Notes: generated by a model not told the origin, from the letters alone. 64,000 nucleotides of DNA from an uncultured Hormoscilla sp. (GCA_963921275.4 OZ001293.3:4736001-4800000); one strand, 5' to 3'. Positions 5,852 through 50,258 are shown, counted from the stretch's first letter. Program-made: numbers and translations.

Positions 5852-7593
5852 GGATGGGGTCGAGCCGGGAATCGCTTCCCGACCCTCCCTTGAGGAACCG
5901 GACTTGCGATTTTCACCGCATCCGGCTACTGGGTACTAGGCCCTTTTCATAGGTGGATGGGGTCGAGCCGGGAATCGCTTCCCGACCCTCCCTTGAGGAA
6001 CCGGACTTGCGATTTTCACCGCATCCGGCTACTGGGTACTAGGCCCTTTTCATAGGTAGACTTAATAGGAATTACTTCCGTTAGCCCTTGCCGCCTGTCT
6101 TTTCTTCCCTTTCCTGGTTTAGCGAGTGGTTGTTCTGATAACCGTTAGTATCACCATTTTCAAGTCAGTTTTACCAGTTATCCATACCTTATCCTCCACT
6201 TGCGTTTCGGATTAGTTCCGTGGCTTTTTAGGATTACTCATTCCAGCAGCTTCCTAGTATCACCGACCCACGTCAGCGCTGGCTACCCAGCATCATCTAC
6301 ATTACTGTAGATGTTATCCCAGGAATTACCCCGGGCATTCGCTTCTTGGGTCATCCCTCCCCCCGTGGCTTGCGCTTAACATCTAACTTGTCCTGATGGA
6401 CAGCACACGAGAGGTTACTTCGTTCCCTAACAACATTTCGCGATACCTTTAGGTCCACACTATACCCCGGGAGCTATTTGAGTACTATATTAGCCAGAGT
6501 CTAAAACTAATACTAGCTACCATTTCCTTTTTAGGCCAGCGCATATAGCCTTATTTCGCTGGTTCCTTATAACGAGGCTTGCACATGTTTGCCTGCTCTA
6601 ACCTTGGATATCTTTCCTAGCGGCGTCACCGGCTTAGGCTGCCAGTTATCCTACATTTGAGTCCTCGCTTAGCACCACGATGATGTCGCTTCGTAGCACC
6701 GAGGACCGGTGTCACCCCCGTACCTGGGGGGAGGGGAATTTAACCCCCATGCGGTCAGAGTTCCCGGCTAATGAAACCGGGCTAGCGTTCCGTGTTTGAC
6801 CACGTTAGGCTAGAACGAATCGCACAGACTTAATAGGAATTACTTCCGTTAGCCCTTGCCGCCTGTCTTTTCTTCCCTTTCCTGGTTTAGCGAGTGGTTG
6901 TTCTGATAACCGTTAGTATCACCATTTTCAAGTCAGTTTTACCAGTTATCCATACCTTATCCTCCACTTGCGTTTCGGATTAGTTCCGTGGCTTTTTAGG
7001 ATTACTCATTCCAGCAGCTTCCTAGTATCACCGACCCACGTCAGCGCTGGCTACCCAGCATCATCTACATTACTGTAGATGTTATCCCAGGAATTACCCC
7101 GGGCATTCGCTTCTTGGGCCATCCCTCCCCCCGTGGCTTGCGCTTAACATCTAACTTGTCCTGATGGACAGCACACGAGAGGTTACTTCGTTCCCTAACA
7201 ACATTTCGCGATACCTTTAGGTCCACACTATACCCCGGGAGCTATTTGAGTACTATATTAGCCAGAGTCTAAAACTAATACTAGCTACCATTTCCTTTTT
7301 AGGCCAGCGCATATAGCCTTATTTCGCTGGTTCCTTATAACGAGGCTTGCACATGTTTGCCTGCTCTAACCTTGGATATCTTTCCTAGCGGCGTCACCGG
7401 CTTAGGCTGCCAGTTATCCTACATTTGAGTCCTCGCTTAGCACCACGATGATGTCGCTTCGTAGCACCGAGGACCGGTGTCACCCCCGTACCTGGGGGGA
7501 GGGGAATTTAACCCCCATGCGGTCAGAGTTCCCGGCTAATGAAACCGGGCTAGCGTTCCGTGTTTGACCACGTTAGGCTAGAACGAATCGCAC
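5852..7593 (-). mobile_element. ORF-less group II intron A, outer copy (871 bp: 5852-5954 plus 6826-7593)
   Basis: GTGCG 5' end at 7593; domain V AGCCGGATGCGGTGAAAATCGCAAGTCCGGTT; domain VI; near-identical to the other A copies. Confidence 0.92.
5955..6825 (-). mobile_element. ORF-less group II intron A, inner copy inserted in the same orientation just upstream of domain V of another copy
   Basis: 871 bp; removing it restores CCTATTAAGTCT|ACCTATG as in intact copies. Confidence 0.92.
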
Positions 7594-7862
7594 GGACCCT
7601 TTAGGGTTCGGGCGGCGAGGCCGAGTATCAAGGGTGTGGTCAAAATCCATTGGTAAGAGGATCCCCCCCAGCCCCTCTCATACATATTTTGCTTTGCAAA
7701 GTAATAAAAGTGGGACAAAAAGTGGTAGACAGTGGGTCATATGAAAATTTTTTAGTTCTAATTTAGTCGTAAAAAGTAGGAGTTAGTTGTTAAAGTGGCA
7801 AATAGTGTGATATAGTGGGATATGCTAACCTCAACTATGACCAGTGATTCCCACATTGACCT

Positions 7863-9239
7863 ATGGACATCCAAGAAATGCTACAATGGACCGGCGATCG
7901 GGTACTCGCTAAGACCGGCAAACCTCTGGACTCCCTCCAAAAAGCTATATTAGAAGGTACTTTACAAGGTCCAAAATATCCAGAAATAGCCAAAAATAGC
8001 AATGTCAGTCACCATCATGTCAAGAAGGTTGGTTCAAAATTATGGAAACTCCTCTCAGATGTATTGGACAAAAACATCAAGCAATCTAATTTTCGCTCCA
8101 TTTTGGAAGAAAATGAATTTTCCAATATTTATAACTTGGGTGACTGTATGCAAATTGGTAACATCAATCTATGTGGAGAAAATAGCAACTCTCTAGCAAA
8201 AAGCAGATCGCCCTCATCAGAGAGGGACAACTCAGACAAGGTCGATCGGGAAAGATGCCACGATCTCAGAGATGCGCCGGAGTTGAATTGGTCGTGCGAT
8301 CGCCCCCAGGCCCTAACTACTCTCAAAGAATGGATTATCGAAAAGAATACCCGTCTAGTCACGATATTAGGATTATCCGGGATTGGCAAAACTGCCCTAG
8401 CGGTGCAGCTAGTGCAACTTCTACAAGACAACTATGATTATATCATCTGGCGCAGCCTGGAGAATTACCCGACTTGGTCGGACCTGCAAACAAACTTAAT
8501 GCAGTTTTTTTCCCAGCAGCAAGCAACTCAGTTCCTTTCACCCATCGACTACGTGCGATCGCATCGTTGTCTGGTAATCTTGGACGACGTGCAGCAAATA
8601 TTGGTGAGTATAGAATTAGCGGGCGAGTACCAACCAGGCTACGAAGATTATGGCACATTCTTTAAGCAAGTAACAAAATTCCCCCACAAAAGTTGCTTAT
8701 TACTCCTGAGTTGGGAAAAACCGAGAGAAATTGCCACCTTAGAAGGGGTGAACCGTCACTGTCGCAGCTTCCAACTGCAAGGTTTAGGTGCCTCAGGGCG
8801 GGAAATATGCAAAGAGAGAGGATTAACCGATCCAGACAAATGGTTAGAACTGATTCACCTTTACGGCGGTAATCCCTTATGGTTAAATATAGTTGCCACG
8901 ATGATTAGAGAATTATTTAATGGTAGCGTAGCACAGTTTTTATCTTGTCCCACCCTCTGTTTAGGAGATGTAGAACCTTTATTGCAGAAACATTGTCAGC
9001 GTTTGTCCGAGTCGGAAAAACAGGTAATGTTTTGGTTAGCAAGTCAAGAGGTGGCTGTCGAGATTTCCAGTCCCCCAGAAACTATCCCACTTTCCCCCTC
9101 AGATTTCTTCACAGCGGTACAGTCTTTGAGGCGACGTTGCTTAATTGATAAGGTCACCGAAAACAGGCGATCGCGCTTTACCCTTCAGCCTGTCATTAAG
9201 GAGTATGTGAAAAACAAATCTTGGGCGCAATCAAATTAG
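7863..9239 (+). CDS. NB-ARC/STAND NTPase with N-terminal HTH-like region and no C-terminal WD40/TPR repeats
   Basis: Walker A GLSGIGKT, Walker B LVILDD, YGGNPLWL motif. Confidence 0.85.
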   Translation: MDIQEMLQWTGDRVLAKTGKPLDSLQKAILEGTLQGPKYPEIAKNSNVSHHHVKKVGSKLWKLLSDVLDKNIKQSNFRSILEENEFSNIYNLGDCMQIGNINLCGENSNSLAKSRSPSSERDNSDKVDRERCHDLRDAPELNWSCDRPQALTTLKEWIIEKNTRLVTILGLSGIGKTALAVQLVQLLQDNYDYIIWRSLENYPTWSDLQTNLMQFFSQQQATQFLSPIDYVRSHRCLVILDDVQQILVSIELAGEYQPGYEDYGTFFKQVTKFPHKSCLLLLSWEKPREIATLEGVNRHCRSFQLQGLGASGREICKERGLTDPDKWLELIHLYGGNPLWLNIVATMIRELFNGSVAQFLSCPTLCLGDVEPLLQKHCQRLSESEKQVMFWLASQEVAVEISSPPETIPLSPSDFFTAVQSLRRRCLIDKVTENRRSRFTLQPVIKEYVKNKSWAQSN

Positions 9240-9258
9240 GCGCGATCGCCTTTTTCCT

Positions 9259-9477
9259 TTACCTCCGCAGCACCGCAGTTATAATGATTGTCAGAGTCGC
9301 ACTGGCTATTAAAGTAAAAGCAAGTTGCACAACCCATTGAGTCGCTTGCTGGTAGTTGGAAAAGCGATCGTTAAACTTGGTAACATCATTCGACAACTTT
9401 TCGACGTCATTCGATAACTTTCCTAACTGTTCAACTACATCTGCTAGTGTTGGTTCCGTGTTTGGTGTACTCGTCAT
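9259..9477 (-). CDS. Small coiled-coil protein with C-terminal membrane anchor
   Basis: MTSTPNTEPTLADVVEQL...WVVQLAFTLIASATLTIII. Confidence 0.6.
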   Translation of the reverse strand: MTSTPNTEPTLADVVEQLGKLSNDVEKLSNDVTKFNDRFSNYQQATQWVVQLAFTLIASATLTIIITAVLRR

Positions 9478-9707
9478 TTTTTTCTTTCTTAACCCGATAA
9501 TTATATTATAGCAAGCCGTCAGGAGTTCTGCAACTGACTTTTTCTGAAATATTTCCTCTGTTTTCCCGGTTCCGAGAATAAGCTGAACAACCATAATAAT
9601 GCGATCGCTCTATTATTTAATTTTTATCTAGTCGGTTAAAACCGACTTTAGCTATTAGCCGGGGGTTTGAACGGCGGGCTGACTTCTCCCATAATCATGC
9701 GATCGCC

Positions 9708-11558
9708 CTATAAAAAACCAGGGCTTTGAACCACTGGCGGGGTAACTAAACCCATTTGCACTTGCCAGAGACTAGCATAAATTCCCGACTGTGCTAATAG
9801 TTCTTCATGTCGTCCCGATTCTACTATTTTACCCCGTTCCATCACGTAAATGCGATCGGTCTTGCGGATCGTGGACAGACGATGGGCGATCGCAATCGTG
9901 GTGCGATTCTGGGTAATGCGATCGAGCGATCGCTGAATAGCTGCTTCCGTCTCATTATCCACTGCGGAAGTCGCCTCGTCTAAAATCAAGATTGGCGGAT
10001 TCTTCAACACCGCCCGAGCGATCGCGATCCGCTGCCTTTGTCCTCCCGATAACTTCTGCCCCCGCTCTCCCACTATGGTATCATAACCGTAGGGGAGTTG
10101 GACAATAAAATCATGGGCTTCCGCCACCCGTGCAGCGGCAATTATTTCTGCTTCTGTAGCATCGAAACTGCCATAGGCGATGTTCTCACTCACAGTTCCG
10201 TGGAATAAGAAGACATCCTGACTCACAAACCCGATACAACGACGTAAATCCTGTAGTTGCAGTTGTCGTAATTCTATCCCATCTAGAGTAATACTGCCAG
10301 ATTGAACTTCATAAAACCGCAACAATAGTTTGACGATGGTGCTTTTGCCCGAACCCGTGGCCCCAACGATCGCGATTGTCTTGCCAGCAGGAATCTTGAG
10401 GGAGAGATTTTCTAGAACCGGGGCGCGATCGCGATAAGCAAAAGTTACCTCCTGCAATTCCAACTCACCCCGCACTGTTGCTAGAGTCATCTCTCCAGGA
10501 TGAATCATAATTGGCGTATCCAACAAATTCATCACGCGCTTGGTAGACGCCATTGCCCGTTGATACTGATCCAAAGTATCTCCCAAACGCACCAACGGCC
10601 AAAGTAACCGCTGAGTCAGGAATACCAACACGCTGTAAGTGCCAACTGCCAGTCTTCCTGCTGCTGTTTCCATGCCGCGGTAGAGCAATATCCCCGTAAA
10701 ACCGCACAGAATTAACATTCTAATTAAAGGTATGAAAGCAGCAGATAAGGCGATCGCCCGACAATTGCTTTGGCGATAGGCTTCGCTATCTTGTGCTACC
10801 CGGGCCGCTTCATACTCCTCAGCAGTAAAGCTTTTAATCATAGTAATCCCACTCAAATTATTAGAAAGCCTGCCGTTGAGAAAACCCACCTTTTTCCGCA
10901 CGTCAGCGTAACGGGGGGCGAGACGGCGCTGAAAGGCAATCGAATTAAAAAAGATGAATGGCATCGGGACGATCGCCAACCAAGCCACCTCCGGAGCCGT
11001 AATTATGAAAGTCGCCCCCACAATGACTACTGCGGTGCAGAGCTGGAGAATTTGATTAGCTCCTACATCCAAAAAGCGCTCTAATTGATTAATATCATTA
11101 TTGAGAATCGACATCAAATCCCCCGTGCTGCGCTCTTCAAAAAATTCCAGTTCCAAATTTTGTAAATGCTTATAGCTATCCAGACGCAAATTATGCTGAA
11201 TTGTCTGGGCGAGATTCCGCCACAGACGCTGATAAATATATTGACAAGTCGATTCCAATCCCCAGACGATCGCCGACAGTAGGGAAATTACCAAAAGTTG
11301 TCCGAAGATATCCGTGACTCCCAACTTCGTGGCAATTAGAGAATCTTTTCTCTTGACTACCACATCCACTGCTGCGCCAATTAAAGCGGGAGGCGCCAAG
11401 TCGAATATTTTGTTCAAGATCGAACAGGCGATCGCCTGCCATACTTCGAGCCGATAATTCTGTCTGTAGTCCAGCAAGCGTTTCAGGGGATGCACCCGCG
11501 TTTTCCCGGTATCTAACCGACCCTGGGTAGTTTTTGCCTTTGTCACTTTATTCCTCAT
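9708..11558 (-). CDS. ABC exporter, fused permease and ATPase
   Basis: [26 protein letters not shown]-terminal TM domain. Confidence 0.95.
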
Positions 11559-11765
11559 TTACAACTGACTCTGCTTGATTATATAACATTCCTTGCCGAT
11601 TTTTACCATCAAAATGAAAAAACGATCTGGTCCGGCTACAGCAGGGCGATCGCATTTATAGTAATTCCGTGCAAGTACTTATTGTATATTAACATAGAAT
11701 AAGCAATAATTAAGTTAAGATGATTGTTGTGATCGCCTCTGAGGAGGCAAAAATAGTAATAATCT

Positions 11766-11984
11766 ATGACTCAGCAACCACCACCTGATATGGAAAAAAT
11801 CAAGCAAAGGGCAGCTAAAGTGCAAGAAATCTGCAAAAGAGCTGATGCGGAGATTTTAATTTTAGACGATCTGATTGCCCAGTTAGAGGAAAAGATTCGT
11901 GCTTCTCCTCTATACCGTTACCGACTGCATAAGGCAAAGCGTTTGCTCTTTATTGAGTCCGATCCGTTTGGAGGTGACCCTTGA
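11766..11984 (+). CDS. Hypothetical helical protein
   Basis: GAGGAGG upstream; similar to the broken ORF at 12388. Confidence 0.55.
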   Translation: MTQQPPPDMEKIKQRAAKVQEICKRADAEILILDDLIAQLEEKIRASPLYRYRLHKAKRLLFIESDPFGGDP

Positions 11985-12046
11985 AAGGAACTACCGATCG
12001 TAGTATTCTGTGTGGTTATAGGAGAGTACAGCTCTAATGGGAAAGT

Positions 12047-12391
12047 ATGGCAAAATTACCTACTCAAACTCTAATCACTATTTTCGACTTACAGCGACGG
12101 CTGATAGAACTCATTGATGAGGCAAAAGCAGCGGAGTTAAACCTGTTTGAGCGGTTTGGCGAGACAGAGGAAACTCTTGAGGAACTAGAACAACTGCAAA
12201 ATAGTACAGAACGACTCAGAAATCCTTACTCTCGTCTGTACTCGCTGGCGCTGACAATTGCTGAGGCTCAACCGACAGATCCATCTGCTATGCTAAACTT
12301 ACTGGCTGAAACTCTCGAACAAGGACCAGCGATAGCTGATGCTGTAGAAGCTAGTATTCTAGAAATTAAAAGGACTTGGAATCTGCCATGA
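12047..12391 (+). CDS. Hypothetical helical-bundle protein
   Basis: 114-aa ORF, overlapping the next start (ATGA). Confidence 0.65.
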   Translation: MAKLPTQTLITIFDLQRRLIELIDEAKAAELNLFERFGETEETLEELEQLQNSTERLRNPYSRLYSLALTIAEAQPTDPSAMLNLLAETLEQGPAIADAVEASILEIKRTWNLP

Positions 12392-12597
12392 ACAACAAAC
12401 AGAGAATTCCTGATGCCCAGACGAGAGCCAAAAATGTCGCTCGAATGCGCGAAGCTATTCGACAAATTGATGCTTTTACTTATCAACTAGATGAGTAAAT
12501 TGCGATGGTGGAAGAACATAATCGTCGCAGTCCTTTGACAGCTTACCGCTTGGGCAAGTTGAAGGGACCAGCAACTCAGAATAATACCCAGAAATGA
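12388..12597 (+). pseudogene. Broken paralog of 11766-11984
   Basis: ...QLDE*IAMVEEHNRRSPLTAYRL versus LDDLIAQLEEKIRASPLYRYRL. Confidence 0.55.
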
Positions 12598-12755
12598 TAC
12601 GTGCGATCGCGCTTTCTCACTCTCACCCGTTTCCTGGCGAGGGAGCATCTAAATGTAATAATTAAGAAACCAGGTTTTGACAAAAAACCTGGTCTTGGCT
12701 TCTGGGCTACTAGCGTGAGAGTGATAAGATAGTAAGAGATAGTAGAAGTGGAGTA

Positions 12756-13118
12756 GTGATCGTGAACAAATCTCCAGAAGAGTACATCCAGTCAATGCGA
12801 ACAGCATTGGGACGGGGCGACCTGAAAACAGCACAAGAACTGGCGGCGTCGGCGGTAAAAATTTACCCTGACGCTGCTGACATCCAGCAATGTGCTTACG
12901 TCCTCGCCCCTACCAAGGTGACCAGCAGTCCCAGCACCTCAGAACAACGTAAAATGATTCAAGCTAATCACGAGTGGCTCCAGAAAAACAGGGAGAAATA
13001 TCGGCATTGATGGGTGGCAGTGCGATCGGGTAAATTATTGGCGGATGCCAGTTCCCTAGACGAGTTAGCCGACCAGTTAGAGGATACAAAGGGTGTATTA
13101 TTAACGGTGCTTTATTAA
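12756..13118 (+). pseudogene. DUF5678-like protein with internal TGA
   Basis: WLQKNREKYRH*WVAVRSGKLLA continues in frame. Confidence 0.6.
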
Positions 13119-13402
13119 TGCTACTACAATTTCCAAATGGAGAACCTTTTGCCACTGGGGCGATTGGTTATGAATATCGTCCCGTAACTGAGAATGAAAC
13201 AACAAATCGACTCTTACTGCAAGTCGATGTAGAAAATGTGCTTGCAGAAGCTGTGGTGGATACTGGAGCACCATATTCGATCATAGCGCCCCGAATTGCT
13301 GAGGATATATTCATGTTTCCATTCCCATGCTTGCGACATATATATCTACCAAATATCTGTAACTCCTTATCCTATCCCAACCGCCTCAGAAATAGAAGTT
13401 AA
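13118..13402 (+). pseudogene. Truncated retropepsin-like (clan AA) aspartic protease
   Basis: AVVDTGAPYSII motif, then loss of similarity. Confidence 0.6.
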
Positions 13403-14518
13403 CCCCCTTTCATCTAACTTTTGCAGCAACCCCGTCAAAATTCGCCGCACCATCAGCGGACCTTCATAGACAAAACCAGTGTATACTTGCACCAGACTCG
13501 CACCAGCGGTAATCTTTTCCCAAGCATCGGACGCCGTGAAAATGCCACCCACCCCAATAATCGGCAATTGCCCTTGAGTTTCCTGCCAAATAAACCGTAT
13601 CACCTCAGTCGATCGCGCGCGTAAAGGTGCGCCGCTGATACCTCCGGCCTCAGAAGCGATCGGTTTTCCCGTTCTCGGCAGCACCTGGGTTTTCAGTCCA
13701 TCTCTGCTAATAGTAGTATTAGTAGCAATAATTCCCGCCAGTCTATAGGTAGTGGCCAAAGCAACCACCTCTGCGATCGCCCCCCAGTCCAAGTCCGGGG
13801 AAATCTTCACCAAAATCGGCTTGTGGTTTTTGTTTTCCTGCTCTATAGCCTCTAGAATCAGACTAAGTTGGGTGGCATCTTGGAGCCTCCGCAGATCGGG
13901 AGTATTGGGAGAGGAGACATTAACGACAAAATAGTCTCCCCATGGCTCTAGCTGGCGAAAACTTCCTAGATAGTCCGTCGCAGCCGACTCCAACGGTGTT
14001 ACCTTAGACTTACCAACATTAATTCCAATGGGAATCGTGGGGTGCATCTGGTGCTGCGCAAACCTAGCTGCCATCACCGCTGCCCCGTTGTTATTGAATC
14101 CCATGCGATTCAGGGCAGCGCGGTCGGCATCCAAGGAAAACAACCGGGGACGAGGGTTGCCCGGTTGGGCATGCAGAGTCACAGTGCCAATTTCAGCAAA
14201 ACCAAAGCCCAGTGCATCCCAAATCCCCACAGCAACGCCATCTTTATCGAAGCCTGCTGCTAGACCCACGGGGTTGCTAAAGGATAACCCCCACAGGGTT
14301 TGTTCTAAGCGCGGATCCTGCAATGCCAGGGATTGCTGTAATTGGGCCTTGATCGGCGGTCCCCCCCTTACAGGAAGGGGGGTTAGGAGAGATCTCTGAG
14401 GGTCTTTACTGAGGCGCGCGAGCCAACTCAAACAGCCCAGTGTTTGTCGGTGCATCCATTCTGGCTCGATTTTTAGTCGGGAAAGTAAAATTGTCCGGAT
14501 TGCTTGATAAATCCCCAT
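13367..14518 (-). CDS. pyrD: Quinone-dependent dihydroorotate dehydrogenase
   Basis: [34 protein letters not shown]. Confidence 0.95.
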
Positions 14519-14614
14519 AAATAGAGTAATGGATTACTTGTTTAACTGTTCCCGTTCGCGTAGCGCAGCCTGTGGCTGCACGCTGCGCTATAGCCATTTA
14601 ATATCATTAGACAT

Positions 14615-14862
14615 TCTACAGTTGTCGTACAAAAGCTCTTTTTGTAATACAATAGAGATGACAATTTGTCGTGCGGAATGTGGGTGATAATATTGAAGCG
14701 ATCTCAACCGGAGCAGGTCGAGTCGCTTTGGCCATTCAGTCTACAGTTGTCGTACAAAAGCTCTTTTTGTAATACAATAGAGATGACAATTTGTCGTGCG
14801 GAATGTGGGTGATAATATTGAAGCGATCTCAATAGGAGCAGGTCTAGTCGCTTTGGCCATTC
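14615..14862. repeat. 125-bp direct tandem duplication upstream of a DUF4347 remnant
   Basis: TCTACAGTTGTCGTACAAAAGC... at 14615 and 14740. Confidence 0.85.
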
Positions 14863-14913
14863 CTGCCAGCGGGGCCGGGACTCATCAAGCAATTTTATCT
14901 CTGGAGCCAAAAA

Positions 14914-15330
14914 ATGAAACCTCAAACTAACGAAATAGTAGTAGACGCCTCCTGAGAAAACTACCAGCAGCTAATAGAGGGCATCCGGCCCGGGGCCAAG
15001 ACCTTCATCTTAGACCCGAAGTCCGACGGCATCCGGCAGCTCGGCGAAATCTGCCAACAGCATCGGGAAGCCGAGGTTCTGCACCTGCTCTCCCACGGCA
15101 GTCCTGGCTGTCTGTATCTGGGGAACTCCCAACTGAATTTAGATACCCTAGGGGATTACGCCCCAACACTGCAAGAGTGGAAGGTAAAGAAAATCCTGCT
15201 CTATGGCTGTAATGTAGCAGCAGGAGATGGGGGAGAGGAGTTAATAACCAAGCTGCAGGCCCTGACCGGGGCAGACATTGCTGCCTCCTACCCGGACGGG
15301 GGCGGCGGCCCGGGGAGGAGATTGGGAGTT
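14914..15330 (+). pseudogene. DUF4347 domain remnant; intron-free homolog of the site at 49387/50259
   Basis: VVDAS*ENYQQL...LHLLSHGSPGCLYLGNSQL...LLYGCNVAAG. Confidence 0.75.
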
Positions 15331-15446
15331 CTCTCGCAACAATCCCTGACCTCTTTGGAATGCTTGATAGTACATTACCATAGAACCAATGGTAATTGCA
15401 CCCTGAAAAGTTTGGTAGGCGATGAAGCCAAAGGCTGCGAATATGG

Positions 15447-16207
15447 CTATGGTGGCACTGGACGGCGGGCCAGGGTGAGTCTCTCTTGGCGTATTTGCTG
15501 GCGCAGCAAGCGAAAACGTTCTTGAAATAACTCACCTAGCTTGAACAGCCTGATTTCCTTGGCGTGGGCAATATTTGTTAGTAAACTACTGAAATAATGG
15601 GCGTATCTTTTTGTCCAGCCATTTGCTGTAATTTTGATGCGCATACTTGATGCGAAAAATACTGGCAACACCGCTAGCAACAAAATTGCTGCTATTATCC
15701 AATGTAGGGACAGCAGTAAAAGGGCGATCGCCCCCAGACGGCACCCGCACTGAATTAATTTATTGAAAATGGTCGTGGGACGATAGGGCGCTTCTGCTTG
15801 GGCCTGATGCAGGGCATCGTAATATTGGGCATTTTCATAATCTTCTAGATCTACCTCAATGGATTTAGCATGGAGGAGGTTTTGTACGTAGTCCGTGACT
15901 AACTGAAACTGGGCTTGGGTTACCAACCCGGTCAGGGAACGACAGATATCTGTAACTATGCCTATAATACCAGCTAGGATAATTAATAGCACAACTTGCC
16001 CAAAGCTATTTCCGGCACTGCCTCTGGTCACCGCGTCGATCGTAAGTTTGGTCAGATAAAGGGAAAGCAGGGGCAAAACTGCTTGACAACACACTAAAAA
16101 TCTGCTAGCAATAGTCCAGCCAGGGGTACTTTTTAGACTAATTGGATAGATCTGCGCAGGTACAGAAAACGGCGAATTTTTTGGCGGGCGCGACGCCAGG
16201 AGGGCAT
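15447..16207 (-). pseudogene. ABC transporter permease N-terminal fragment
   Basis: TM helices and HAKEIRLF motif; no ATPase domain; broken 5' part. Confidence 0.7.
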
Positions 16208-16781: not shown

Positions 16782-16829
16782 ATTGTTCGAGTAAATTGTT
16801 CGTAGTAAGGACTTTAGTCCTTGCGATCG

Positions 16830-17060: not shown

Positions 17061-17149
17061 GCGTGCTATTCGCTGAGACTTGACCACTGCGTTGATCGTC
17101 GTAACCAGTTCACCGCCTGCGCTCACGCCCCTTAACAATAGAGATATTT

Positions 17150-17436
17150 TATCCGGGAATAACTGAGTCACTCCCTGGAGTGACTCAGTTATTCCCGGGA
17201 AAACTCAGTCATTTCCAAAGGTAACTATTCATTTCTAGGAGTAACTAAATCATTCCACCGAGTACGAAAGTCATTCGGTGGCGTCACAACCTTTTGCTTT
17301 GGCGTGAGACAAGATTACCGAAGGGCAGTTGAGTAACTCCAAGGCCAGAGTAAGCACCTCCAAGGCCGGAGTAAGCACTTCCAAGGCCGGAGTAAGCGCC
17401 TCCAAGGCCGGAGTAAGCACCTCCAAAGCCGGAGTA
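17150..17436. repeat. Two adjacent 21-bp-period arrays (degenerate 17150-17280; conserved 17337-17436)
   Basis: Units like GGAGTAACTCAGTCATT and CTCCAAGGCCGGAGTAAGCAC. Confidence 0.8.
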
Positions 17437-17754
17437 AAATCGGGGGTGTGGTCTTGCGCCCGTTGGTAAGTAGTTCGTAGTTCAACCTTGCGGGCTATAT
17501 TACATGCATCATCGATGCACCCGGCTATCAACTATTTGTGACCGCACCCTTCTGAGGGCCCAAAACGTCGCCTGTTACTACTTATCACCTGTGGCGAACT
17601 TGCTGTTCCCAATGAGGAACCAAAAAATGAAGTATAATTAATTCTTTCCCTAACAAAGCAGGAAATACTACTATAGATAGCTAAAAGCTAGCTTCCCTCA
17701 AGGTCGCCAGTGACCAACCCCTAAAAAAGTTTATCTCTTACATCAGGAGATCTT

Positions 17755-19822: not shown

Positions 19823-26663
<6,841 letters not shown>

Positions 26664-35898: not shown

Positions 35899-35900
35899 TC

Positions 35901-39932: not shown

Positions 39933-39972
39933 ACAAAAATAAAGGTCAAAACAAGTTATAACCCACATTCCG

Positions 39973-40091
39973 CGTTCCGGAAAAATCGGGATGCTAGCTG
40001 CTGCTTCGCCACGGCTACACGCTCCGGGCCTCCTCCTCGCAGCGTAGGGGGCCCGGAGCGTGCAGTGACGCAAAAACCCCTCAGACATCGA
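39973..40091 (-). repeat. Inverted copy of the repeat at 30017-30133
   Basis: Reverse complement aligns over its length. Confidence 0.85.
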
Positions 40092-40652: not shown

Positions 40653-40913
40653 ATGAGAACCTTAATTTCAACCGACCGCTCTCTAGTGACCGGTGCAGAA
40701 CGACCTGTGGCGGCCTGCAAAAATGCTGTCCGATTAACTGGCCGTGGGAGGAAGTCATTATATCAAGTAGATCAGCAAGTCAAGTTCCTGCATCTGCAAG
40801 CGGAAGTAGAATCCCTCTGGCAGCAGTTGCAAGTGCTCAAACAACAAAGACAGGCATCCCAGGAGGCCAAAGTACTCGCTAGTACTGTAACGGTAGCCGA
40901 CACTACAGAATAG
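40653..40913 (+). CDS. Hypothetical small coiled-coil protein
   Basis: YQVDQQVKFLHLQAEVESLWQQLQ. Confidence 0.6.
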   Translation: MRTLISTDRSLVTGAERPVAACKNAVRLTGRGRKSLYQVDQQVKFLHLQAEVESLWQQLQVLKQQRQASQEAKVLASTVTVADTTE

Positions 40914-41070
40914 GATAAAAAGCGTTGTTGTCTGCAAGCTGTGATATAAAAAATAAAGCCTTCCAGCCTACTGGGCAGCTTGTGGGCAACAACCAGAACC
41001 TACGAGGAATGGCCTGAGTAACTGGTGGCCAGTAACATGATTGTGATGTGTAAGGAGAAAGCATCGATTA

Positions 41071-44000
41071 ATGACAGCATCTATAGTCAAGCCGCAAACC
41101 GATGAACAGCAGGCTTCCCTGCGGTTGAAAGACATCATTAAAACCTTGCCGCGAGAGGTTTTCCTCAAGAACAGACGCAAAGCCTGGACTACTGTGTGCG
41201 ATTCGTTTAGTGTAAAATGAATTGACACATGTCAATAAATGGGACCACTAGCAGGGTGACATTAGCCCTGACAACTTCTAGATGATGGTGGTGAAAGCCC
41301 ACCCCTCCAGGTGCAGGAGTGAAAGCGTAACCCCTACGGTAGCGATGGCATCAATCCGTAAAGCGGGGTTAAAAGGCGCACTGACTGGTAGCCTAAACCG
41401 GTTATCGCCAAGCAAGTAGTCATGGTGAGCGAAAGCAAAGACTCATAAGTGTCGTCACAAGGAACCAGCGAAAAGGCTGAACCTGAAACGCTGGCCCAAA
41501 AAGGGAAAGGATAATGGTCATTGGCGGATACAGTACCGACCAATAAGCACTGACAATAAACCCGGCATATAGAGTCCACCTAAAACTACAACCAATCATC
41601 TAGAGGAACGAAGTAAACCAGATATATACTCTCAACCACCGGTCGATAGGTTGAGTAGCCACCACAGGCGCAACATCTGCTCTCCGGAAGGCAGGTTGTA
41701 TCTGGGAAAGATTGAGCGGAGAAGCTAACGCCCGTCTGTAATGGATGGGATATGCTGACGCCCTCACGGTAACGTCAATTGTGGAGTTGTAAGTAGCAAT
41801 GCATACGTCATGAGCACGGTTTCCGAATCGATGAATGAATGGAAGGATATCCCCTGGCCTCGGCTGGAGCGGGTAGTCTTTAAGTTGCAAAAACGAATTT
41901 ACAGAGCGGCACTGGAAGGCAATAAGCGAACGGTTCGCAGACTCCAAAGGTTACTGGTAAAATCCCGGGCTGCCAAAAGTCTAGCGGTACGACAGGTGAC
42001 ACAAGATAACCAGGGAAAGAAGACCGCTGGTGTGGACGGTGTGAAAGCACTGACCCCGAAGCAAGGTTTAGAACTGGTAGGACAGATGGAAATCTCAAAC
42101 AAGGCCAAACCTACACGGCGTGTATGGATACCCAAGCCAGGAAGAGAGGAAAAGCGTCCTTTAGGAATACCAACGATGTATGACCGCGCGACACAGGGAC
42201 TCCTCAAGATTGCGCTCGAACCCGAGTGGGAAGCGTACATGGAAGGGAACTCCTATGGATTCAGACCGGGAAGGGGATGTCACGATGCAATCGGAGCGAT
42301 ATTCTTAAGCATCAAACATAAACCCAAGTGGGGACTAGATGCTGACATCGCAAAATGCTTCGACAAGATAAACCACAAAGCGCTACTGGAGAAACTGAAC
42401 ACCATAACACCAATCCGTAAACAAATACGGGCATGGCTAAAGGCCAGTGTGATGGACAAATGGAACTGGCATGCAACCGAGGCGGGTACTCCCCAAGGGG
42501 GGGGCATATCACCATTACTAGCCAACATAGCCCTCCACGGGTTAGAGGAGGCAGTGATGAAGCTCGCCAGTACACAAAGGGAAAAGCAGAGACTGACGGT
42601 AGTCAGGTATGCTGATGACTTTGTTGTAATGCATGAGAGCAAGGAGATGATAGACAAAGCGCAAATGGTGGTGGCAGAGTGGCTAAAAGAAATGGGGCTA
42701 GAGTTGAAAGCCGAAAAGACAAAAATAACTCATACGCTAAAAGGAGAAAAACCGGGATTTGATTTCCTGGGGTTCAACATAAGGCAATATGAGGTGGGTA
42801 AAAACAGAACCGGCAAATCAGGTCAAGGAACACCCCTAGGATTCAAAACCCTAATCAAACCCAGTAACAAGTCCATAGGGAAGCATAAAGAACGGCTAGC
42901 AGAGGTGGTAGCCAGCCATAAAGCAGCACCACAAGCGGCCCTGATAAGCAGGCTAAGCCCGATAATACGGGGATGGTCTAACTACTACAGGTCCGTGGTG
43001 AGTAAGGAAACTTACTTCGACATGGATAACTACCTATGGAACATCCTATGGCAATGGGCCAAAAGGAGACATCCCCATAAGTCAAGTCACTGGATAGTCC
43101 GTAAGTACTGGTCTGTAGACCAGGATGATTGGCGATTCCGGTGCAAGGCAGGGAAGGGAGAGGTAACGCTGTACAAACACTCTGAAACTGAGATAGTCAG
43201 ACACGTAAAAGTGAAAGGCGCAGCAAGCCCATATGATGGGAACCTTACATATTGGAGTACAAGGTTAGGCAAAAGCCCTGAACTAAGTAAGAGAGTAGCG
43301 TTGCTACTGAAGAGGCAAAAAGGAAAGTGCCAACACTGCGGACTAACGTTTATGGACGGTGACAAGTGGGAAGTTGACCAGATCAAGCCCCTCTCATTAG
43401 GGGGTAAGGACCGGTATGACAATCTACAGTTGCTGCACAAACATTGCCACGATATAAAGACTGCCAGCGATGGCAGCAAGAATAGCCGTACCTGTGACAA
43501 AGGTGGCGTTACTGAGGAGCCGGATGACGTGAAAATGTCATGTCCGGTTTTGAAGACGAGTCGGTACGGTGACGTACTGGCTTAGTTTAATAATTATTAA
43601 CGTGCTGCTGGTGATATTGGGATACGTCGGTCTGGCGATCGCGCCCTGGTTTCTGTTGCCGCCCCTATGGATATTTACGGGGACAGCGCTGACGGGTTTC
43701 TTCGTGTTGGGTCACGACTGCGGCCATCGGTCCTTTGCCAACCGGAAATGGGTAAATGACCTAGTAGGACATTTAGCATTTCTGCCCTTGATTTACCCCT
43801 TCCACAGCTGGCGGATCCTGCACAATAAACACCACGCACACACGAACCTATTAGGGGGAGAGGACACGGCGTGGGAACCCTTTCAGCCAGAATTTTACGA
43901 TAACTTTGGCGCAGTCGGGAAGTGGTTTTATCGGAGAATTCGGGGTCGGTTTTGGTGGGTAGGGTCAATTGCCCACTGGGGAATCCTCCACTTTAACTGG

Positions 44001-44507
44001 TCTCAGTTTGAAGGCAAAGAGCGACAGCAAGTTAAACTGTCGGTGTTTGTGGTGTTGATTGGTGGGGCGATCGGGTTTCCGGTCCTGATTGCCACCACAG
44101 GCATCTGGGGTTTGGTAAAATTCTGGTTAATGTCCTGGTTAGTTTACCACTTCTGGATGAGCACCTTTACGATCGTCCACCATACATCACCAGAAATTCC
44201 CTTCACCACAGCAGACAAGTGGAATGAGGCTTTAGCTCAACTTGAGGGGAGTGTTCACTGCGACTATCCCCGCTGGGTAGAATACCTTTGTCACGATATC
44301 AACGTTCACATCCCCCATCATATTTCCACAGGGATTCCTTTCTATAACTTGCGCTTAGCTCATCGCAGCTTGAAGGAGAACTGGGGGGATTATATCAAGG
44401 AACGTCAGTTCTCTTGGTCTTTAATGAAGCAGATTACAGACACCTGCCACTTGTATGACCCGGACGCCTGCTATAAGTCTTTCCAAGACTACCACGCTGG
44501 CAAATAA
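41071..44507 (+). CDS. desA: Delta-12 acyl-lipid desaturase, 346 aa, split by intron E (exons 41071-41195 and 43592-44507)
   Basis: Joined exons 1041 nt in frame (AWTTV|IINVLL); His boxes HDCGH, HNKHH, HIPHH. Confidence 0.9.
41196..43591 (+). mobile_element. Group II intron E
   Basis: GTGCG start; ...TTAGTTTAAT end; EBS1 ACAGTA pairs perfectly with exon end TACTGT. Confidence 0.95.
41810..43585 (+). CDS. ltrA: Intron E-encoded RT-maturase with variant HNH domain
   Basis: Uninterrupted 591 aa; YADD; WEVDQ in place of WEVDH. Confidence 0.92.
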
Positions 44508-44644
44508 CGACTAATTCTGCTGTTGGGTGAAGTACTCTGGTTGAAGGGTGTAATTCGATCGGGAAGTAAAAAAATGAGACTTGCTCCTTCATACTTTATA
44601 CTTCACCCAATCAGAAATCACGGCGTAATTTTAAGAAAAATAAT

Positions 44645-45981
44645 ATGGGGATTGAATTAGTCAAATCTCTTAAATCAGCAGGAGTTAAATTTCTGCGTGT
44701 AGTCTTTTGCGATAACGCCAATGCGATCCGCGCCAAGGCTATTCACCTGGGGATCCTCGCAGAAAACCTGGACTATCCGGTCAGCATCACAGCGGTCAAG
44801 AGGCTAAGCAAGCATTGCCGGTGATGTATGATGGGGTGGTTCCTGATAGTGGACTGGCCCCGGTGGGGGAAGTTTGGTTGGTTCCCGACTGGTCAACATG
44901 TAAGATTTTACCCTATGGACCCAGCCACGCCCGGGCGATGGGGATACGATCCACAATGGAAAACCTTGGTCGTTATGTCCGCGATATTTTCTCAAACGAG
45001 CGATCGCCGCCGCCAAACAAGCAGGGATAGAGGTGATGGCCGCTTTTGAAAATGAATTCTCCCTGCTGCATTCTAGCAATAATGAAATTATCCCCACTGA
45101 TGATACTGTGTTTGCCTCCACTCTGGGGATGGATCTCAATCGCAAAATCATTGATGCGATCGCCGATGCTTTAGTGGCCCAAGATATGACCGTAGAGCGA
45201 TATTATCCTGAATCGGCCCCCGGACAGCATGAAATTTCTATCCGGTATGCCGAAGCTTTGCAAGCTGCAGATAATCAGATCGTGTTTCGGGAAACGGTGC
45301 GGGCGGTCGCCATCGAACATGGGTTAAAAGCCTCATTCTTACCAAAAATCTTTGCAGATAAAGCAGGCAACGGTTGCCACTTGCACGTGAGTCTCTGGCA
45401 AGAGGGCAAAAATATCACGGGGGATGGTTCTGGGAAACTTTCGAGTACGGCCCTGGCTTTTATCGCGGGCATTCTCCACCATCTCCCGGCCCTCATGGCC
45501 CTGACCACCCCGAGTACGAACTCTTACCGGCGCATTCGCCCCCACTTTTGGAGTGGTGCTTTTGCGGCTTGGGGCTATGATAACCGAGAGGGGGCAGTGC
45601 GGGTGCCTAGTAACCCAGTGCCACCGAGTCCCACCCATTTTGAGTTAAAAACTTCTGATGCTTCAGCTAACCCATATCTAGCTTTGGGAGCAGTGATTTT
45701 TGCCGGTTTGGATGGGATAGGCCGAAATCTTAGCCCTGGAGACCCGGGTAGATATTGACCCGGGGCTGTTTTCGGAAGCAGAACTTACCGAACGCGGGAT
45801 CGAAAGATTGCCCCAAAACCTAGGAGAAGCGATCGAACACCTGAGTGGCGATCGCCTGCTCTTAGATGCCCTGGGTGCAGAACTAAACCGCGCTTACCTG
45901 GCGGTGAGAAAAGCGGAATGGGAGGCGATGAAAGACATGGAATTAGAAGCAGAAGTGAATCTTTTACTCGAACGCTATTAA
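44645..45981 (+). pseudogene. Glutamine synthetase-family (gamma-glutamyl ligase) gene, frameshifted
   Basis: AFENEF, ESAPGQHEI, GNGCHLHVSL, WGYDNRE, ANPYLA across several frames. Confidence 0.8.
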
Positions 45982-45986
45982 GAAAA

Positions 45987-46862
45987 ATGATGCCCCTTGC
46001 GGATATTCCTCTAATTGACCAGCATGCCCACAACCTACTAAAAGCGGAAATTTTCTCGGCATATGCTTACTCGGCGGCTTTTACCGAGGGTTATGACCCG
46101 AAGATTGTCAACTATCATGCCCGTCATACTCTCTGTTACCGTCGCAGTTTGCGAGATATTGCTGCACTGTTGGACTGCGAACCCAGCGAAACTGAAATTA
46201 TCCAGCAACGGGAACAGTTAGGACTGGAAAAACTGACCTAATTTTGTTTCCAGGCGGCTAACATTGAAAGCATTTTCATGGATGATGGGTTTTTAGGCAA
46301 TCAAATACTTCCCTTAGCATGGCATCAAAAATTTTTGCAAGTTCAGCGATTATTGCGTTTAGAAACCTTAGCAGAGACTATATTTGAACAAACCTAGTCT
46401 TTTGAGGCTTTTGTAAACGAGTTTCGCAGTCAGCTTGAATGTCCGGTGGTTATAGGGTTTAAGAGTATTGCCGCTTATCGGACTGGTTTAGCCATTGAAT
46501 CAGTTGCTGAAGCCGAGGCAAAATCTTGTTTTTACTTGCTAAAAGATACTTACAAATATAAGCCATTCAGACTCGCGAATAAATCCTTAATTGACTTTCT
46601 GCTAGGACAAGCTCTTGCCGCCCGGCAGAAAATGCCCGTACAGTTTCATACGGGGTTTGGCGATCCGGACTTAGACTTATTGTTAGCAAATCCTCTACAT
46701 TTGCGACCAATTTTAGAAGCTCGACGTTATGGCGATGTGCCGATAGTCTTGTTGCATGGGTCATATCCTTACGAAGCAGCATATTTGGCCAGTGTTTATC
46801 CCCAGGTTTATGTAGATTTTGGGCTAGCAGTGCCATTTTTAAGTGTTTCCGGAATATGGTAG
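45987..46862 (+). pseudogene. Amidohydrolase (FluG N-terminus-like), broken
   Basis: IDQHAHN, GFKSIAAYRTGL, QFHTGFGD; stop or frameshift near 46240, truncated. Confidence 0.75.
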
Positions 46863-48344
46863 CAAGTGGGTGGCCACATACCGCTCGCATGTAGAGATGA
46901 GCTGGGAAATTTGGTTAGTGGCGATCGCCTTAGTGCTGTTGCCCCCCAGCTTGATTTGGCTAGGATACCACATATTTCCCCCCGAAACGGGCAGTAGAAT
47001 ATTATCAGTTACCGATTTATGTATCTTTGCGGGTGAGGCTGCGGTAGCTGTTGGGGCGTCCTTAATGGTGAATGAATGGAGGGCGTTGCACATTTTGGGG
47101 ATGATGCCATTGTTTGCACAGGCTACGCTACTGAAAGTGGCTTATAGTCTACGTTTAAGACTTATGCAAAGAGACTCATCGTCCCGTGATTGTGCAACGC
47201 TTCTTTTCTATCGATGTCCCCCCCATCTCAGAAGATTGCCAAAGTAGGAGGTAGAGGGTCGGAGGTTTCAACTAGATCGTCCTTTCGATGCCTACCTACC
47301 GCGCCCCCTCCCGCACGGCGAAAACCCGGAAGGCATCGCTCAGGTATCGAGGTTCCCCCCATTGTGGTAAACTTCAAGTAACCACAGTGAAATCATCGCT
47401 AGTAATCAGGGTAAAATCAATGCGCTTTAGGGTGGTCAGGGTTTCCTCTTCAAAGTTAATCAAAGTATTTCGGCCCCGAGAGACGATCTGCAAATTGGCG
47501 AAACTCAAACCTCCTGCTAGCCCGATCAAGTCCGTGCCATCTTCAAAGTCTATGATGGTATCCCGGCCATGGCCCTGCTTCAGAACAAAAATATCGGCGT
47601 CCTCTCCTCCGTAGAGGGTATCGAGCCGGTCTTTTCCTCCTAGACCTAACAGTTTTTCCCCGTTGGGCGTCCCCCGGAGGTAGTCGTTCTGACTATCCTC
47701 ACCGACTATTGGTAGGCCAACCTCTGAAACATCGTTGACGTTAATGGTAAAGGTCTCTGAGTAACTGTTCCCAGCAGAGTCGGTAGTTTGGACGCGGATG
47801 CTGTAACTAAACTGGGTCTCATAGTCCGGTGAACTGTTAATTAGCAGTTGGTCCCCGGAAATGGTTAAGGCGGCGTTGTCGGAGGCACCGGCGCCTGAGA
47901 CTAACTGGTAAGTAAAGCTATCTCCCGAGTTGGGGTCGGTAGTGGAGAAGATCCCCACGACACTACCCTCAGCGGAGTTTTCATTGATGCTGCTGTTGCT
48001 GAGTTCTAGATCGGTAGGAGGGGAGTTCTCTATAACAATGTCAAAGATATCTGTCCCTCGATTTCCCGCTTCGTCGATGGCGGTTACCGTTACGGTAAAG
48101 ATGCCTGCGGTAGTAGGGATACCGCTGATAACTCCCTGAGAGTTGATGGTTACGCCCCCTGGTAAACCGGTAGCTGTGTAGTTGTTGATGTTGTTATTGA
48201 TGTCGCCGAAGTTGTCGCTAATGTCTATGTCGAGGTTATTACCTAGCAAGAACTTGACGTCGGGAATCTGGGTTAAAACATAAGGGGGGTTTTCCAATAG
48301 CTTTTCAGCCCGCAAATCTAAGACCTCTTGGGGGATGGTGCCAG

Positions 48345-48950
48345 TTAGTTGGTTGTAGAACAGCCAGAGAAACTCCAAATTGGAAAGATTCCCTAACTCA
48401 GTCGGGATGCTGCCAGTCAGTTGGTTGGAGTACAGCCGGAGACGACTCAAATTGGAAAGATTCCCTAACTCAGTCGGGATGCTGCCAGTCAGTTGGTTGG
48501 AGTTCAGCCAGAGAGACTCCAAATTGGAAAGATTCCCTAACTCAGTCGGGATGCTGCCAGTCAGTTGGTTGGAGTCCAGCCAGAGAAACTTCAAATTGGA
48601 AAGATTCCCTAACTCAGTCGGGATGCTGCCAGTCAGTTGGTTGGAGTACAGAATGAGAAACTCCAAATTGGAAAGATTCCCTAACTTAGTCGGGATGCTG
48701 CCAGTCAGTTGGTTGGAGTCCAGCCGGAGACGATTCAAATTGGAAAGATTCCCTAACTCAGTCGGGATGCTGCCAGTCAGTTGGTTGGAGTCCAGCCAGA
48801 GAAACTTCAAATTGGAAAGATTCCCTAACTCAGTCGGGATGCTGCCAGTCAGTTGGTTGGAGTACAGAATGAGAAACTCCAAATTGGAAAGATTCCCTAA
48901 CTCAGTCGGGATGCTGCCAGTCAGTTGGTTGGAGGACAGATCGAGCCTAG
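48345..48950 (-). repeat. 72-bp tandem repeats encoding nine 24-aa plant-type LRRs
   Basis: xxLxLxSNQLTGSIPTELGNLSNL. Confidence 0.95.
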
Positions 48951-49387
48951 TCACCCGGGAGTTAGCTACAGTCACTCCATGCCAACCATTAACAACAGAA
49001 GCATCGGGGGGAATTGCGCTGTTGAAATTCCAGTCCCGCCAGCCTGTATTGTTACTCCAAGAAGCCCCATTCGTGCTTTGATAGAGAGCCCTTAAGGCCT
49101 GATACTCCTGCTGGGGGATCAATATGCCCCCATAGGCCATCTGAGCTTCTGCGGACAATGCTAAGGGAGTTTTCATCCCCGGAGTTCGCCACTCCAACTT
49201 CCAATTTCCGCCCCGGGCTGCTGCCCCTGTCCGGGTAGTAGAAACGGCGAGGGATGCCCCGGTCGGGGCCTGTAGCTTAGTCATCAACTCCTCTCCTGCA
49301 TCTCCGGCGGCGACGTTACAGCCGTAGAGTAGGAGTTGTTTTACCTTCCACTTCTGCAGGGTAGAGGCGTAATCTCCTAGAGGATCT

Positions 49388-50258
49388 GTGCGATTTGTTC
49401 TAGCCTAACGTGGTCAAACACGGAACGCTAGCCCGGTTTCATTAGCCGGGAACTCTGACCGCATGGGGGTTAAATTCCCCTCCCCCCAGGTACGGGGGTG
49501 ACACCGGTCCTCGGTGCTACGAAGCGACATCATCGTGGTGCTAAGCGAGGACTCAAATGTAGGATAACTGGCAGCCTAAGCCGGTGACGCCGCTAGGAAA
49601 GATATCCAAGGTTAGAGCAGGCAAACATGTGCAAGCCTCGTTATAAGGAACCAGCGAAATAAGGCTATATGCGCTGGCCTAAAAAGGAAATGGTAGCTAG
49701 TATTAGTTTTAGACTCTGGCTAATATAGTACTCAAATAGCTCCCGGGGTATAGTGTGGACCTAAAGGTATCGCGAAATGTTGTTAGGGAACGAAGTAACC
49801 TCTCGTGTGCTGTCCATCAGGACAAGTTAGATGTTAAGCGCAAGCCACGGGGGGAGGGATGGCCCAAGAAGCGAATGCCCGGGGTAATTCCTGGGATAAC
49901 ATCTACAGTAATGTAGATGATGCTGGGTAGCCAGCGCTGACGTGGGTCGGTGATACTAGGAAGCTGCTGGAATGAGTAATCCTAAAAAGCCACGGAACTA
50001 ATCCGAAACGCAAGTGGAGGATAAGGTATGGATAACTGGTAAAACTGACTTGAAAATGGTGATACTAACGGTTATCAGAACAACCACTCGCTAAACCAGG
50101 AAAGGGAAGAAAAGACAGGCGGCAAGGGCTAACGGAAGTAATTCCTATTAAGTCTACCTATGAAAAGGGCCTAGTACCCAGTAGCCGGATGCGGTGAAAA
50201 TCGCAAGTCCGGTTCCTCAAGAGAGGGTCGGGAAGCGATTCCCGGCTCGACCCCATCC
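49388..50258 (+). mobile_element. ORF-less group II intron A inserted antisense in the DUF4347 domain
   Basis: 871 bp; removal restores CTG AGT TTA GAT CCT, matching the homolog at about 15133. Confidence 0.93.

Follow-up and report, generated by a model that had tools for sequence, protein, structure and literature searches.

The window analysed here, a 64,000-nucleotide (nt) stretch of DNA from an uncultured Hormoscilla sp. (GCA_963921275.4 OZ001293.3:4736001-4800000, positions counted from its first letter), contains four nearly identical copies of an 871-nt element, which is a real, well-delimited and recently active IIB2 group II intron without an open reading frame (ORF). The mobile unit extends from GTGCG to CCCCATCC, the terminal CC being a part of the unit and not of the target sequence. 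The best overall explanation, which we consider probable, is that the element represents a non-autonomous group II intron of the cyanobacterial IIB2 type, 871 nt in length. According to it, the element would be transcribed by read-through from whatever promoter, would fold into a ribozyme and would be excised, presumably as a lariat, in the form GUGCG...CCCCAUCC, and the reverse transcriptase (RT)/maturase of an ORF-containing intron located elsewhere in the genome would be supplied in trans. The RNA would then reverse-splice into DNA sites that pair with its exon-binding sites (EBS), EBS2 (UAAGG) and EBS1 (AGACUC), and carry a purine at +1, and would be copied into DNA. The 3' splice site would lie after the CC, 8 nt past the branch A, and would be set at least partly by gamma-gamma' pairing of a G in J2/3 with the last C; the four copies would be recent insertions into imperfect (ectopic) sites, namely a short repeat, a copy of the element itself and, in antisense orientation, two genes.

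An initial annotation of this DNA had proposed four recently spread 871-bp copies differing by a few bases, and a BLAST search with the inner copy as the query found all four where they had been placed. The inner copy (5955-6825, minus strand; 100% as the query itself) is inserted in sense orientation into the outer copy, forming a twintron. The outer copy is split into 7593-6826(-), which corresponds to element positions 1-768 (BLAST identity 99.87% over 768 nt), and 5954-5852(-), which corresponds to positions 769-871 and includes domains V and VI and the CC end (100% over 103 nt). Two further copies are located on the plus strand, with 99.66% identity each: one (20813-21683) is antisense in the RT/maturase ORF of a degenerate intron, designated B, and the other (49388-50258) is antisense in a DUF4347/LRR/cadherin-type gene. 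The alignments among all four copies are ungapped, and five of the 871 positions are variable. The outer copy is equal to the four-copy consensus, and the other three have one, two and two private changes, including A at position 475 in the inner copy and C9T and G835A in the 49388 copy. This star-like pattern is the one that would be expected of a recent burst, and the suggestion of recent spread holds. A scan of the genome contigs with a domain V pattern, which is conserved across phyla, returned at least 91 loci, and no further 871-nt copy outside the window was present among them; a search of a plasmid collection in the 'distant' mode gave no match to the element.

All four copies begin with GTGCG, in line with the GUGYG start of group II introns, and terminate in GACCCCATCC, so that CC takes the place of the terminal AY (adenine-pyrimidine) of group II introns in each of them. 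The bases flanking the copies differ, both at -1 (C, T, T, T) and at +1 (G, A, G, A); therefore, the shared unit is exactly 871 nt long, and sliding of its ends is impossible. The alignment with the Rfam model RF00029 (domains V/VI) stops at ...CCCCAU (positions 5854, 5957 and 21681), two bases before the end of the repeat, which is where a canonical call had been expected to end.

The initial annotation had also stated that the targets are restored exactly only when the CC is removed together with the rest, and the empty sites clearly bear this out in three cases. At the self site, the junction of positions 768 and 769 reads AAGTCT|ACC in intact copies, the insert measures exactly 871 nt, and sliding is again impossible, because the -1 and +1 bases differ from the element ends. 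In the RT gene (minus strand), excision of 871 nt yields TETEIVRHIKVKGTASPFDG, colinear with the intact paralogous ORF at 41810-43585, and excision of 869 nt instead shifts the frame; the DNA alignment of the RT paralogues shows GTC|AGA versus ATC|AGA with nothing between them, and the extra GG belongs to the insert. In the DUF4347 gene (minus strand), excision of 871 nt gives ...LGNSQLSLDPLGDYAS; the sequence upstream of the junction matches positions 13-69 of the Pfam DUF4347 profile and that downstream of it positions 73-164, and the three residues created by the excision, L-D-P, account precisely for the missing positions 70-72. The fourth site, occupied by the outer copy, belongs to a short dispersed repeat, an uninterrupted paralogue of which is found at 51378-51432(-), in agreement with an empty repeat noted earlier near 51385. 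The two align without gaps across the junction only under the removal of 871 nt, the identical stretches comprising 16 nt ahead of a variable core of 6 nt and 7 nt behind it. The presence of CC in empty alleles had been named beforehand as the observation that would speak against this boundary; it was looked for, and CC is absent from all three decisive empty sites (self, RT and DUF4347), while none of the four copies is devoid of it. On these sequence comparisons, three independent empty-site tests confirm the 871-nt boundary including the CC, and the fourth site agrees.

The same tests bear on the simplest alternative, a canonical intron ending in ...CCCCAU, followed by a 3' exon motif that is always selected and starts with CC. 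The point at which the RF00029 alignment stops would be in keeping with it, as would an invariant G in the loop 3' of the EBS1 hairpin, which could pair with C at +1. However, CC is missing at the self site, in two intact RT paralogues, in the DUF4347 profile and in the repeat paralogue 51378-51432, and with three of the three decisive tests refuting it, this alternative is scarcely tenable. The RT and DUF4347 codons lie on the strand opposite to the intron, a circumstance on which the initial annotation was not explicit. Since the intron is antisense to both genes, splicing cannot repair their mRNAs, and the genes are knocked out; the targets are restored exactly at the DNA level, but gene function is not restored by splicing.

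The identity of the element as a group II ribozyme is indicated by RF00029 with a score of 44.4 bits (gathering score 40) in three of the four copies (5957-6033 in the inner copy, 5854-5930 in the outer copy and 21605-21681), the 49388 copy having no match at the gathering score. Rfam models of domains D1-D4 gave only a sub-threshold match (RF01999, 22 bits versus a gathering score of 36). For the structural comparison, the element was aligned with three relatives: an ORF-less intron at 24293-23460, referred to below as rel, and two 980-nt elements, L020 and L068, from a Hormoscilla metagenome-assembled genome (MAG). RNAalifold predicted 214 pairs in this four-sequence alignment, 63 of them with compensatory changes, and recovered domains V and VI; the minimum free energy z-score of the element is -3.97. 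The 5' end of the element reads GUGCGAUUC, the base of domain I contains two extra hairpins with compensatory changes (element positions 13-44 and 45-63), and EBS2 UAAGG (257-261) is located in an unpaired stretch, without a stem. Such a 5' motif, extra hairpins in the base of domain I and an unpaired EBS2 are marks of IIB2 introns (PMC4649490, PMC8643678). The longest ORF of the element encodes 53 amino acids, and tblastn found no RT remnant in it (best E 0.26). Thus, the GTGCG start, the presence of domains V and VI and the lack of an ORF were annotated correctly, and so was the predicted branch A at the ninth base from the end (position 863). In the 20813 copy, these parts correspond to 21069-21073 (EBS2), 21136-21141 (EBS1), 21152-21161 (candidate coordination loop), 21280-21285 (J2/3, with the candidate gamma G at 21282), 21580|21581 (internal self-target), 21608-21639 (domain V), 21646-21683 (domain VI), 21675 (branch A) and 21682-21683 (terminal CC).

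EBS1 AGACUC (324-329), located in a hairpin loop, forms five of six possible pairs with the 5' flank at each of the four sites, and EBS2 forms four of five pairs with positions -13 to -9, again at each site. The relatives behave in the same manner: the EBS1 loop pairs with its own 5' flank at five of six positions in rel and at six of six in L020 and L068, and EBS2 covaries with positions -13 to -9 in L020 (5/5) and L068 (4/5). Non-cognate EBS1-flank combinations among seven elements, including the three ORF-containing introns of the window (A, B and C, described below), gave from zero to five of six pairs. The +1 base is a purine at four of four sites in the window and in eight of eight related copies of the Hormoscilla MAG. 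None of the four copies is accompanied by a target-site duplication, and the element has no terminal inverted repeat; precise insertion without target duplication, combined with EBS-IBS (intron-binding site) pairing, is the signature of reverse splicing. Three of the four hexamers following the copies (GGCTAC, ACCTAT and GACTAT) conform to R-N-C-T-A-Y, the fourth being AAACTC, and this motif may reflect a 3'-exon preference of the helper protein or may be due to chance.

These findings also bear on spread at the DNA level, by recombination, duplication or other transposition machinery, in which case the copies would have ceased to function as introns. Such an origin would suit the antisense orientation of two insertions relative to genes, the damage to domain VI in one copy and the fact that the copies are known from DNA only. 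The flanks, however, are unrelated, the boundaries are exact to the base in the absence of target duplications and terminal inverted repeats, pairing with EBS1 and EBS2 is seen at all four sites, and in the relatives the EBS1 loop changes together with the flank; DNA-level spread is, accordingly, very improbable.

Among the at least 91 loci obtained with the domain V pattern, only ten, all from the one Hormoscilla MAG, match the element beyond domain V; the 3' ends were inspected in 25 loci, comprising those with cyanobacterial titles and L081-L091. Eight Hormoscilla copies are identical through ...CUCGACCCCUAAC and divergent afterwards, the first base then being a purine; their likeness stops after ...CCCCUAAC, which gives a spacer of 8 nt between the branch A and the end. 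In the same columns, L020 reads ...CCCCGUCC, L068 reads ...CCCCAGCC and the window element reads ...CCCCAUCC. The sequence following the branch A consists of CCCC and four more nucleotides in the element, rel, the eight Hormoscilla copies, L020 and L068, with the four-nucleotide tails AUCC in the element, GACU in rel, UAAC in the eight Hormoscilla copies and GUCC and AGCC in two more. A spacer of 6 or 7 nt is typical of group II introns, and 7 nt is the norm for IIB2 (PMC9294222); introns A, B and C have 7 nt (GUUUAAU), and the element, with 8 nt, departs from the norm. The ends of these three introns are verified, since removing B restores the RT frame of C and removing A restores the desaturase frame.

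The 3' splice site of group II introns is specified by the gamma-gamma' and EBS3-IBS3 interactions (PMC9294222). J2/3 reads AGGGAU in the element and all Hormoscilla copies, AGAGAU in rel and AAAGAU in intron A, and its third position can pair with the last intron nucleotide in all six groups, as G-C in four and A-U in two. The same arrangement is described for the gamma-gamma' pair of the O. iheyensis intron, A287 with U412 (PMC3669008). Intron rel is ORF-less, about 79% identical to the element and located at 23460-24293(-) in domain I of intron B. It is most likely 834 nt long and ends in ...CCCCGACU, one base past the Rfam end at 23461, with A at position 3 of its J2/3 pairing with the terminal U. 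When 834 nt are excised, intron B is colinear with C, and the Rfam end (GAC, 833 nt) requires an indel; hence the 834-nt unit is favoured, but not proved, as the copies A and C used in this alignment have diverged.

Because of the shared 8-nt spacer and the covariation of J2/3 with the last base, the position after the CC appears to be the regular 3' splice site of this lineage, and the internal AU, which is not conserved in the relatives, is in all likelihood a coincidence picked up by the Rfam model. The shifted 3' splice site proposed in the initial annotation is, therefore, to be replaced by a lineage-typical long spacer and a penultimate C, as in RmInt1; the unusual features of the element are the length of its spacer, 8 nt, and its penultimate C. 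Alternatively, the CC could be a recent private change of one subfamily, arising from AC or because a master copy captured two exon bases. Among the Hormoscilla subfamilies, the most abundant one does end in the canonical AC, and the boundaries of L020 and L068 are deduced, which would fit. However, the 8-nt spacer is common to all relatives, including those that end in AC, so no bases were added to the end of the element; moreover, rel most likely ends in CU, and L020 and L068 likewise have CC in these two alignment columns. Such a private change seems quite unlikely. Another alternative is that of two 3' splice sites, AU| with a 6-nt spacer and CC| with an 8-nt spacer, where only the longer lariat yields copies. 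An AY dinucleotide is indeed present at the canonical distance from the branch A, and in B.a.I2 two sites 4 nt apart are used, each with its own gamma-gamma' and EBS3-IBS3 pairs (PMC9294222). Against this, none of the four copies is without CC, and the tails of the relatives (GUCC, AGCC, GACU and UAAC) have no AY at the inner position, where the AU is not conserved; alternative splicing of this kind is unlikely, though somewhat less so than the private change. A single regular site after the CC is the reading adopted below.

As the element has no ORF of its own, it needs an RT/maturase in trans. The window contains three introns, A, B and C, of one ORF-containing IIB2-type family, and RT/maturase ORFs are located at 41810-43585, 24526-26004 and, in a broken form, 20530-23096. 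Intron A (41196-43591, plus strand) is intact, ORF-containing and of the IIB2 type, and lies in sense orientation in a fatty-acid desaturase gene; it contains the RT/maturase/HNH ORF 41810-43585 and has the canonical end ...UUUAAU with a 7-nt spacer. This ORF is the only intact intron RT, and encodes the only intact candidate helper protein, in the window. Intron B (20423-24540, minus strand), another member of this family, interrupts the RT ORF of intron C. It is itself interrupted by rel and by the antisense 871-nt copy, and its RT ORF contains an in-frame stop. The co-occurrence of an ORF-less element with related introns that encode an intron-encoded protein (IEP) is the situation described for Thermosynechococcus elongatus, where ORF-less cyanobacterial introns are mobilised in trans (PMC2882425), and residence of bacterial ORF-less introns in genomes with related IEPs is reported as a general pattern (PMC4424553). 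The trans mobilisation suggested earlier is, thus, upheld as far as the need for a foreign protein is concerned; the helper itself was not identified in the window.

Several observations weigh against the proposed explanation or parts of it. Splicing after the CC is deduced from DNA copies. The 49388 copy has the basal stem of domain VI broken by G835A, and every site in the window has one IBS1 and one IBS2 mismatch; owing to one mismatch in each pairing, the four sites look ectopic and not like an ideal homing site. In a comparison of the element, rel, L020, L068 and introns A, B and C, no EBS3 could be assigned, in that neither an alignment column nor a loop position 3' of the EBS1 hairpin is complementary to +1 in all relatives. 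The purine at +1 in 12 of 12 sites suggests a U as EBS3, with U342 or U345 in the loop 3' of the EBS1 hairpin as candidates, and rel, L020 and L068 fit no single column; L020 and L068 have U at +1 under the boundaries assumed for them, and introns A and B differ in their +1 bases although this loop is identical in the two. The putative gamma assignment draws on a single covariation within the ORF-less lineage, and taking position 2 of J2/3 as gamma would fit a rel ending in the canonical GAC. BLAST searches with the flanks of L020 and L068 against all loci and the window revealed no empty sites for these elements, and their ends, like those of the eight Hormoscilla UAAC copies, are placed by sequence alignment; a possible reading frame across the L068 junction was set aside as too speculative. 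With respect to the helper, the element and intron A are about 62% identical over domains I-III, no local similarity of domain IV to the non-coding parts of intron A was detected (best score 21), and neither domain IV similarity nor an RT remnant pointed to a helper within the window. In addition, the HNH motif of intron A reads EVDQIKP, in place of EVDHILP and EVDHIMP in B and C, with Q for the first His (codon 43379-43381); Pfam still scores the HNH domain of ORF 41810-43585, and the endonuclease of intron A may be inactive.

The CC end, which departs from AY, is real but has a precedent in one unrelated RT-encoding intron, RmInt1, which belongs to class IIB3/class D, a class different from that of the element. 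RmInt1 of Sinorhizobium meliloti has a CC 3' terminus and a gamma-gamma' pair G452-C1884, and it is highly mobile, like the element (PMC4238363). Unlike the element, RmInt1 carries an RT/maturase gene of its own, and the exon that follows its terminal CC also starts with CC, the C at +1 pairing with a G as EBS3 (PMC4238363); the element has a purine at +1. In the literature searched, to which survey tables of termini did not belong, and in the part of PMC4238363 drawn upon, there was no report of a CC terminus in IIB2 or ORF-less introns, nor of a penultimate pyrimidine outside RmInt1. Departures from the 6-7-nt spacer are described for the Bacillus introns B.c.I4, with its 'domain VII', and B.a.I2, where the splice site is still fixed by gamma-gamma' and EBS3-IBS3 (PMC1865049, PMC4424553, PMC9294222); those cases involve 53-56 added nucleotides or a second site 4 nt downstream, and the element exceeds the IIB2 norm by 1 nt and has no extra domain. 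One literature listing of altered 3' sites gives only 'domain VII' insertions of 50-70 nt, to which PMC9294222 adds B.a.I2.

With regard to its mode of life, the element resembles the group IIB introns of T. elongatus, another cyanobacterium with many closely related and mostly ORF-less introns (PMC2882425). Their spread has involved divergence of EBS1/2/3 as well as the formation of twintrons through insertion into other introns, and the IEP of an ORF-containing intron moves the ORF-less ones (PMC2882425). However, they are of the IIB1 type, with ribozymes very similar to those of the ORF-containing introns of the same genome (PMC8643678); the element bears IIB2 marks, has ORF-less relatives in another genus, no RT remnant and no domain IV similarity to the window intron, and it also differs in its non-AY end and 8-nt spacer. 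Trichodesmium erythraeum, like the window, has IIB2 introns with nested arrangements and with ORF-less copies thought to depend on a maturase acting in trans (PMC4649490). Many of its introns lie within protein-coding genes, 17 of them being documented to splice in vivo (PMC4649490), while two of the four copies of the element are antisense in genes and cannot restore them. In Methanosarcina acetivorans, group II introns, including ORF-less ones, have been repeatedly inserted into group II introns and RT ORFs, as in the window (PMC4424553). The host in that case is an archaeon and sense-oriented site-specific homing was inferred (PMC4424553); the element is antisense in the RT ORF.

Intron annotation is affected by these features: 3' calls made by the AY rule, by tools and by Rfam, are off by 2 nt for the 871-nt element and most likely by 1 nt for rel, and an error of this kind would mis-predict spliced products and empty sites. 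A naturally mobile ribozyme that combines an 8-nt spacer with a terminal CC or CU constitutes a second, unrelated example beside RmInt1. It bears on the way in which the second splicing step depends on the last two nucleotides of the intron and on the flexible stretch from the branch A to the 3' splice site, a question also raised in a 2022 review (PMC9294222). Besides genes, the ORF-less element is actively inactivating other introns, and among the interrupted sequences is an RT gene of the type that its own mobility would require. Tentatively, and with somewhat less than even confidence, it can be suggested that the element belongs to an old, obligately ORF-less IIB2 lineage, maintained and multiplying in more than one cyanobacterial genus and parasitic on the RTs of other introns, with a 3' architecture of its own, consisting of the 8-nt spacer and, in one sub-branch, a penultimate pyrimidine. 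If so, this would be the second independent lineage, after RmInt1, without the contact between G1 and the penultimate A, and a natural system for studying how second-step splicing and reverse splicing tolerate the loss of this contact.

Nested arrangements were also observed among the other loci. In the Hormoscilla MAG, a UAAC-ending ORF-less copy is antisense in an ORF-less intron of the same lineage (L042:896-1457(+)/L042:1458-1535(-)), and the EBS1 loop of the host copy is mismatched to its own 5' flank. On a Microcoleus contig (L005:1501-1667(+)), an intron start GTGCGG... directly follows domain V of another intron, which looks like a twintron in the domain V-VI linker. Within the window, the region 20093-26604(-) forms a four-level nest: intron C comprises 26604-24541 and 20422-20093, and its RT ORF is split by intron B (24540-20423), which contains rel (24293-23460) in domain I and the 871-nt copy (20813-21683) antisense in its RT ORF. 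The in-frame stop of the latter ORF is a TAG near 22560 (...SIK*KPKW). In introns A, B and C, the RT ORFs run through domain V and end inside domain VI (43515-43591(+), 20423-20500(-) and 20093-20170(-)); their conserved peptide EEPDD.K.S.PVLKTS is the translation of domain V, and the stop codon of intron A is located 6 nt before the intron end. Removal of intron A joins ...KAWTTV|IINVLLV... in frame (desaturase gene 41100-41195 and 43592-44507, plus strand).

The interrupted DUF4347-LRR-He_PIG-cadherin gene occupies 47374-50467(-), with its N-terminal part at 50467-50259, its C-terminal part at 49387-47374 and the codon TT|A split by the insertion. An in-frame TAG (50432-50434, minus strand; ...LENY*QLIDG...) is present in the N-terminal part, upstream of the insertion, and the gene may have already been a pseudogene before the insertion or may have decayed afterwards. 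Arrays of 21-nt tandem repeats with differing units are found at 4980-5131, 5673-5749, 17337-17437 and 51026-51345 and adjoin copies of a short GC-rich hairpin segment that is conserved. One of these segments is occupied by the outer copy and also contains a lone Rfam match to CRISPR-DR28 (5819-5842, 36.6 bits versus a cut-off of 35), which is probably not a CRISPR repeat; similar segments are located at 17490-17546 and 51378-51432. Two neighbouring genes encoding TPR-repeat proteins (54481-56622 and 56779-57720, plus strand) have near-identical N-terminal halves, and a third one (52999-53259) contains a 123-nt tandem duplication; these similarities look like recent local duplications.

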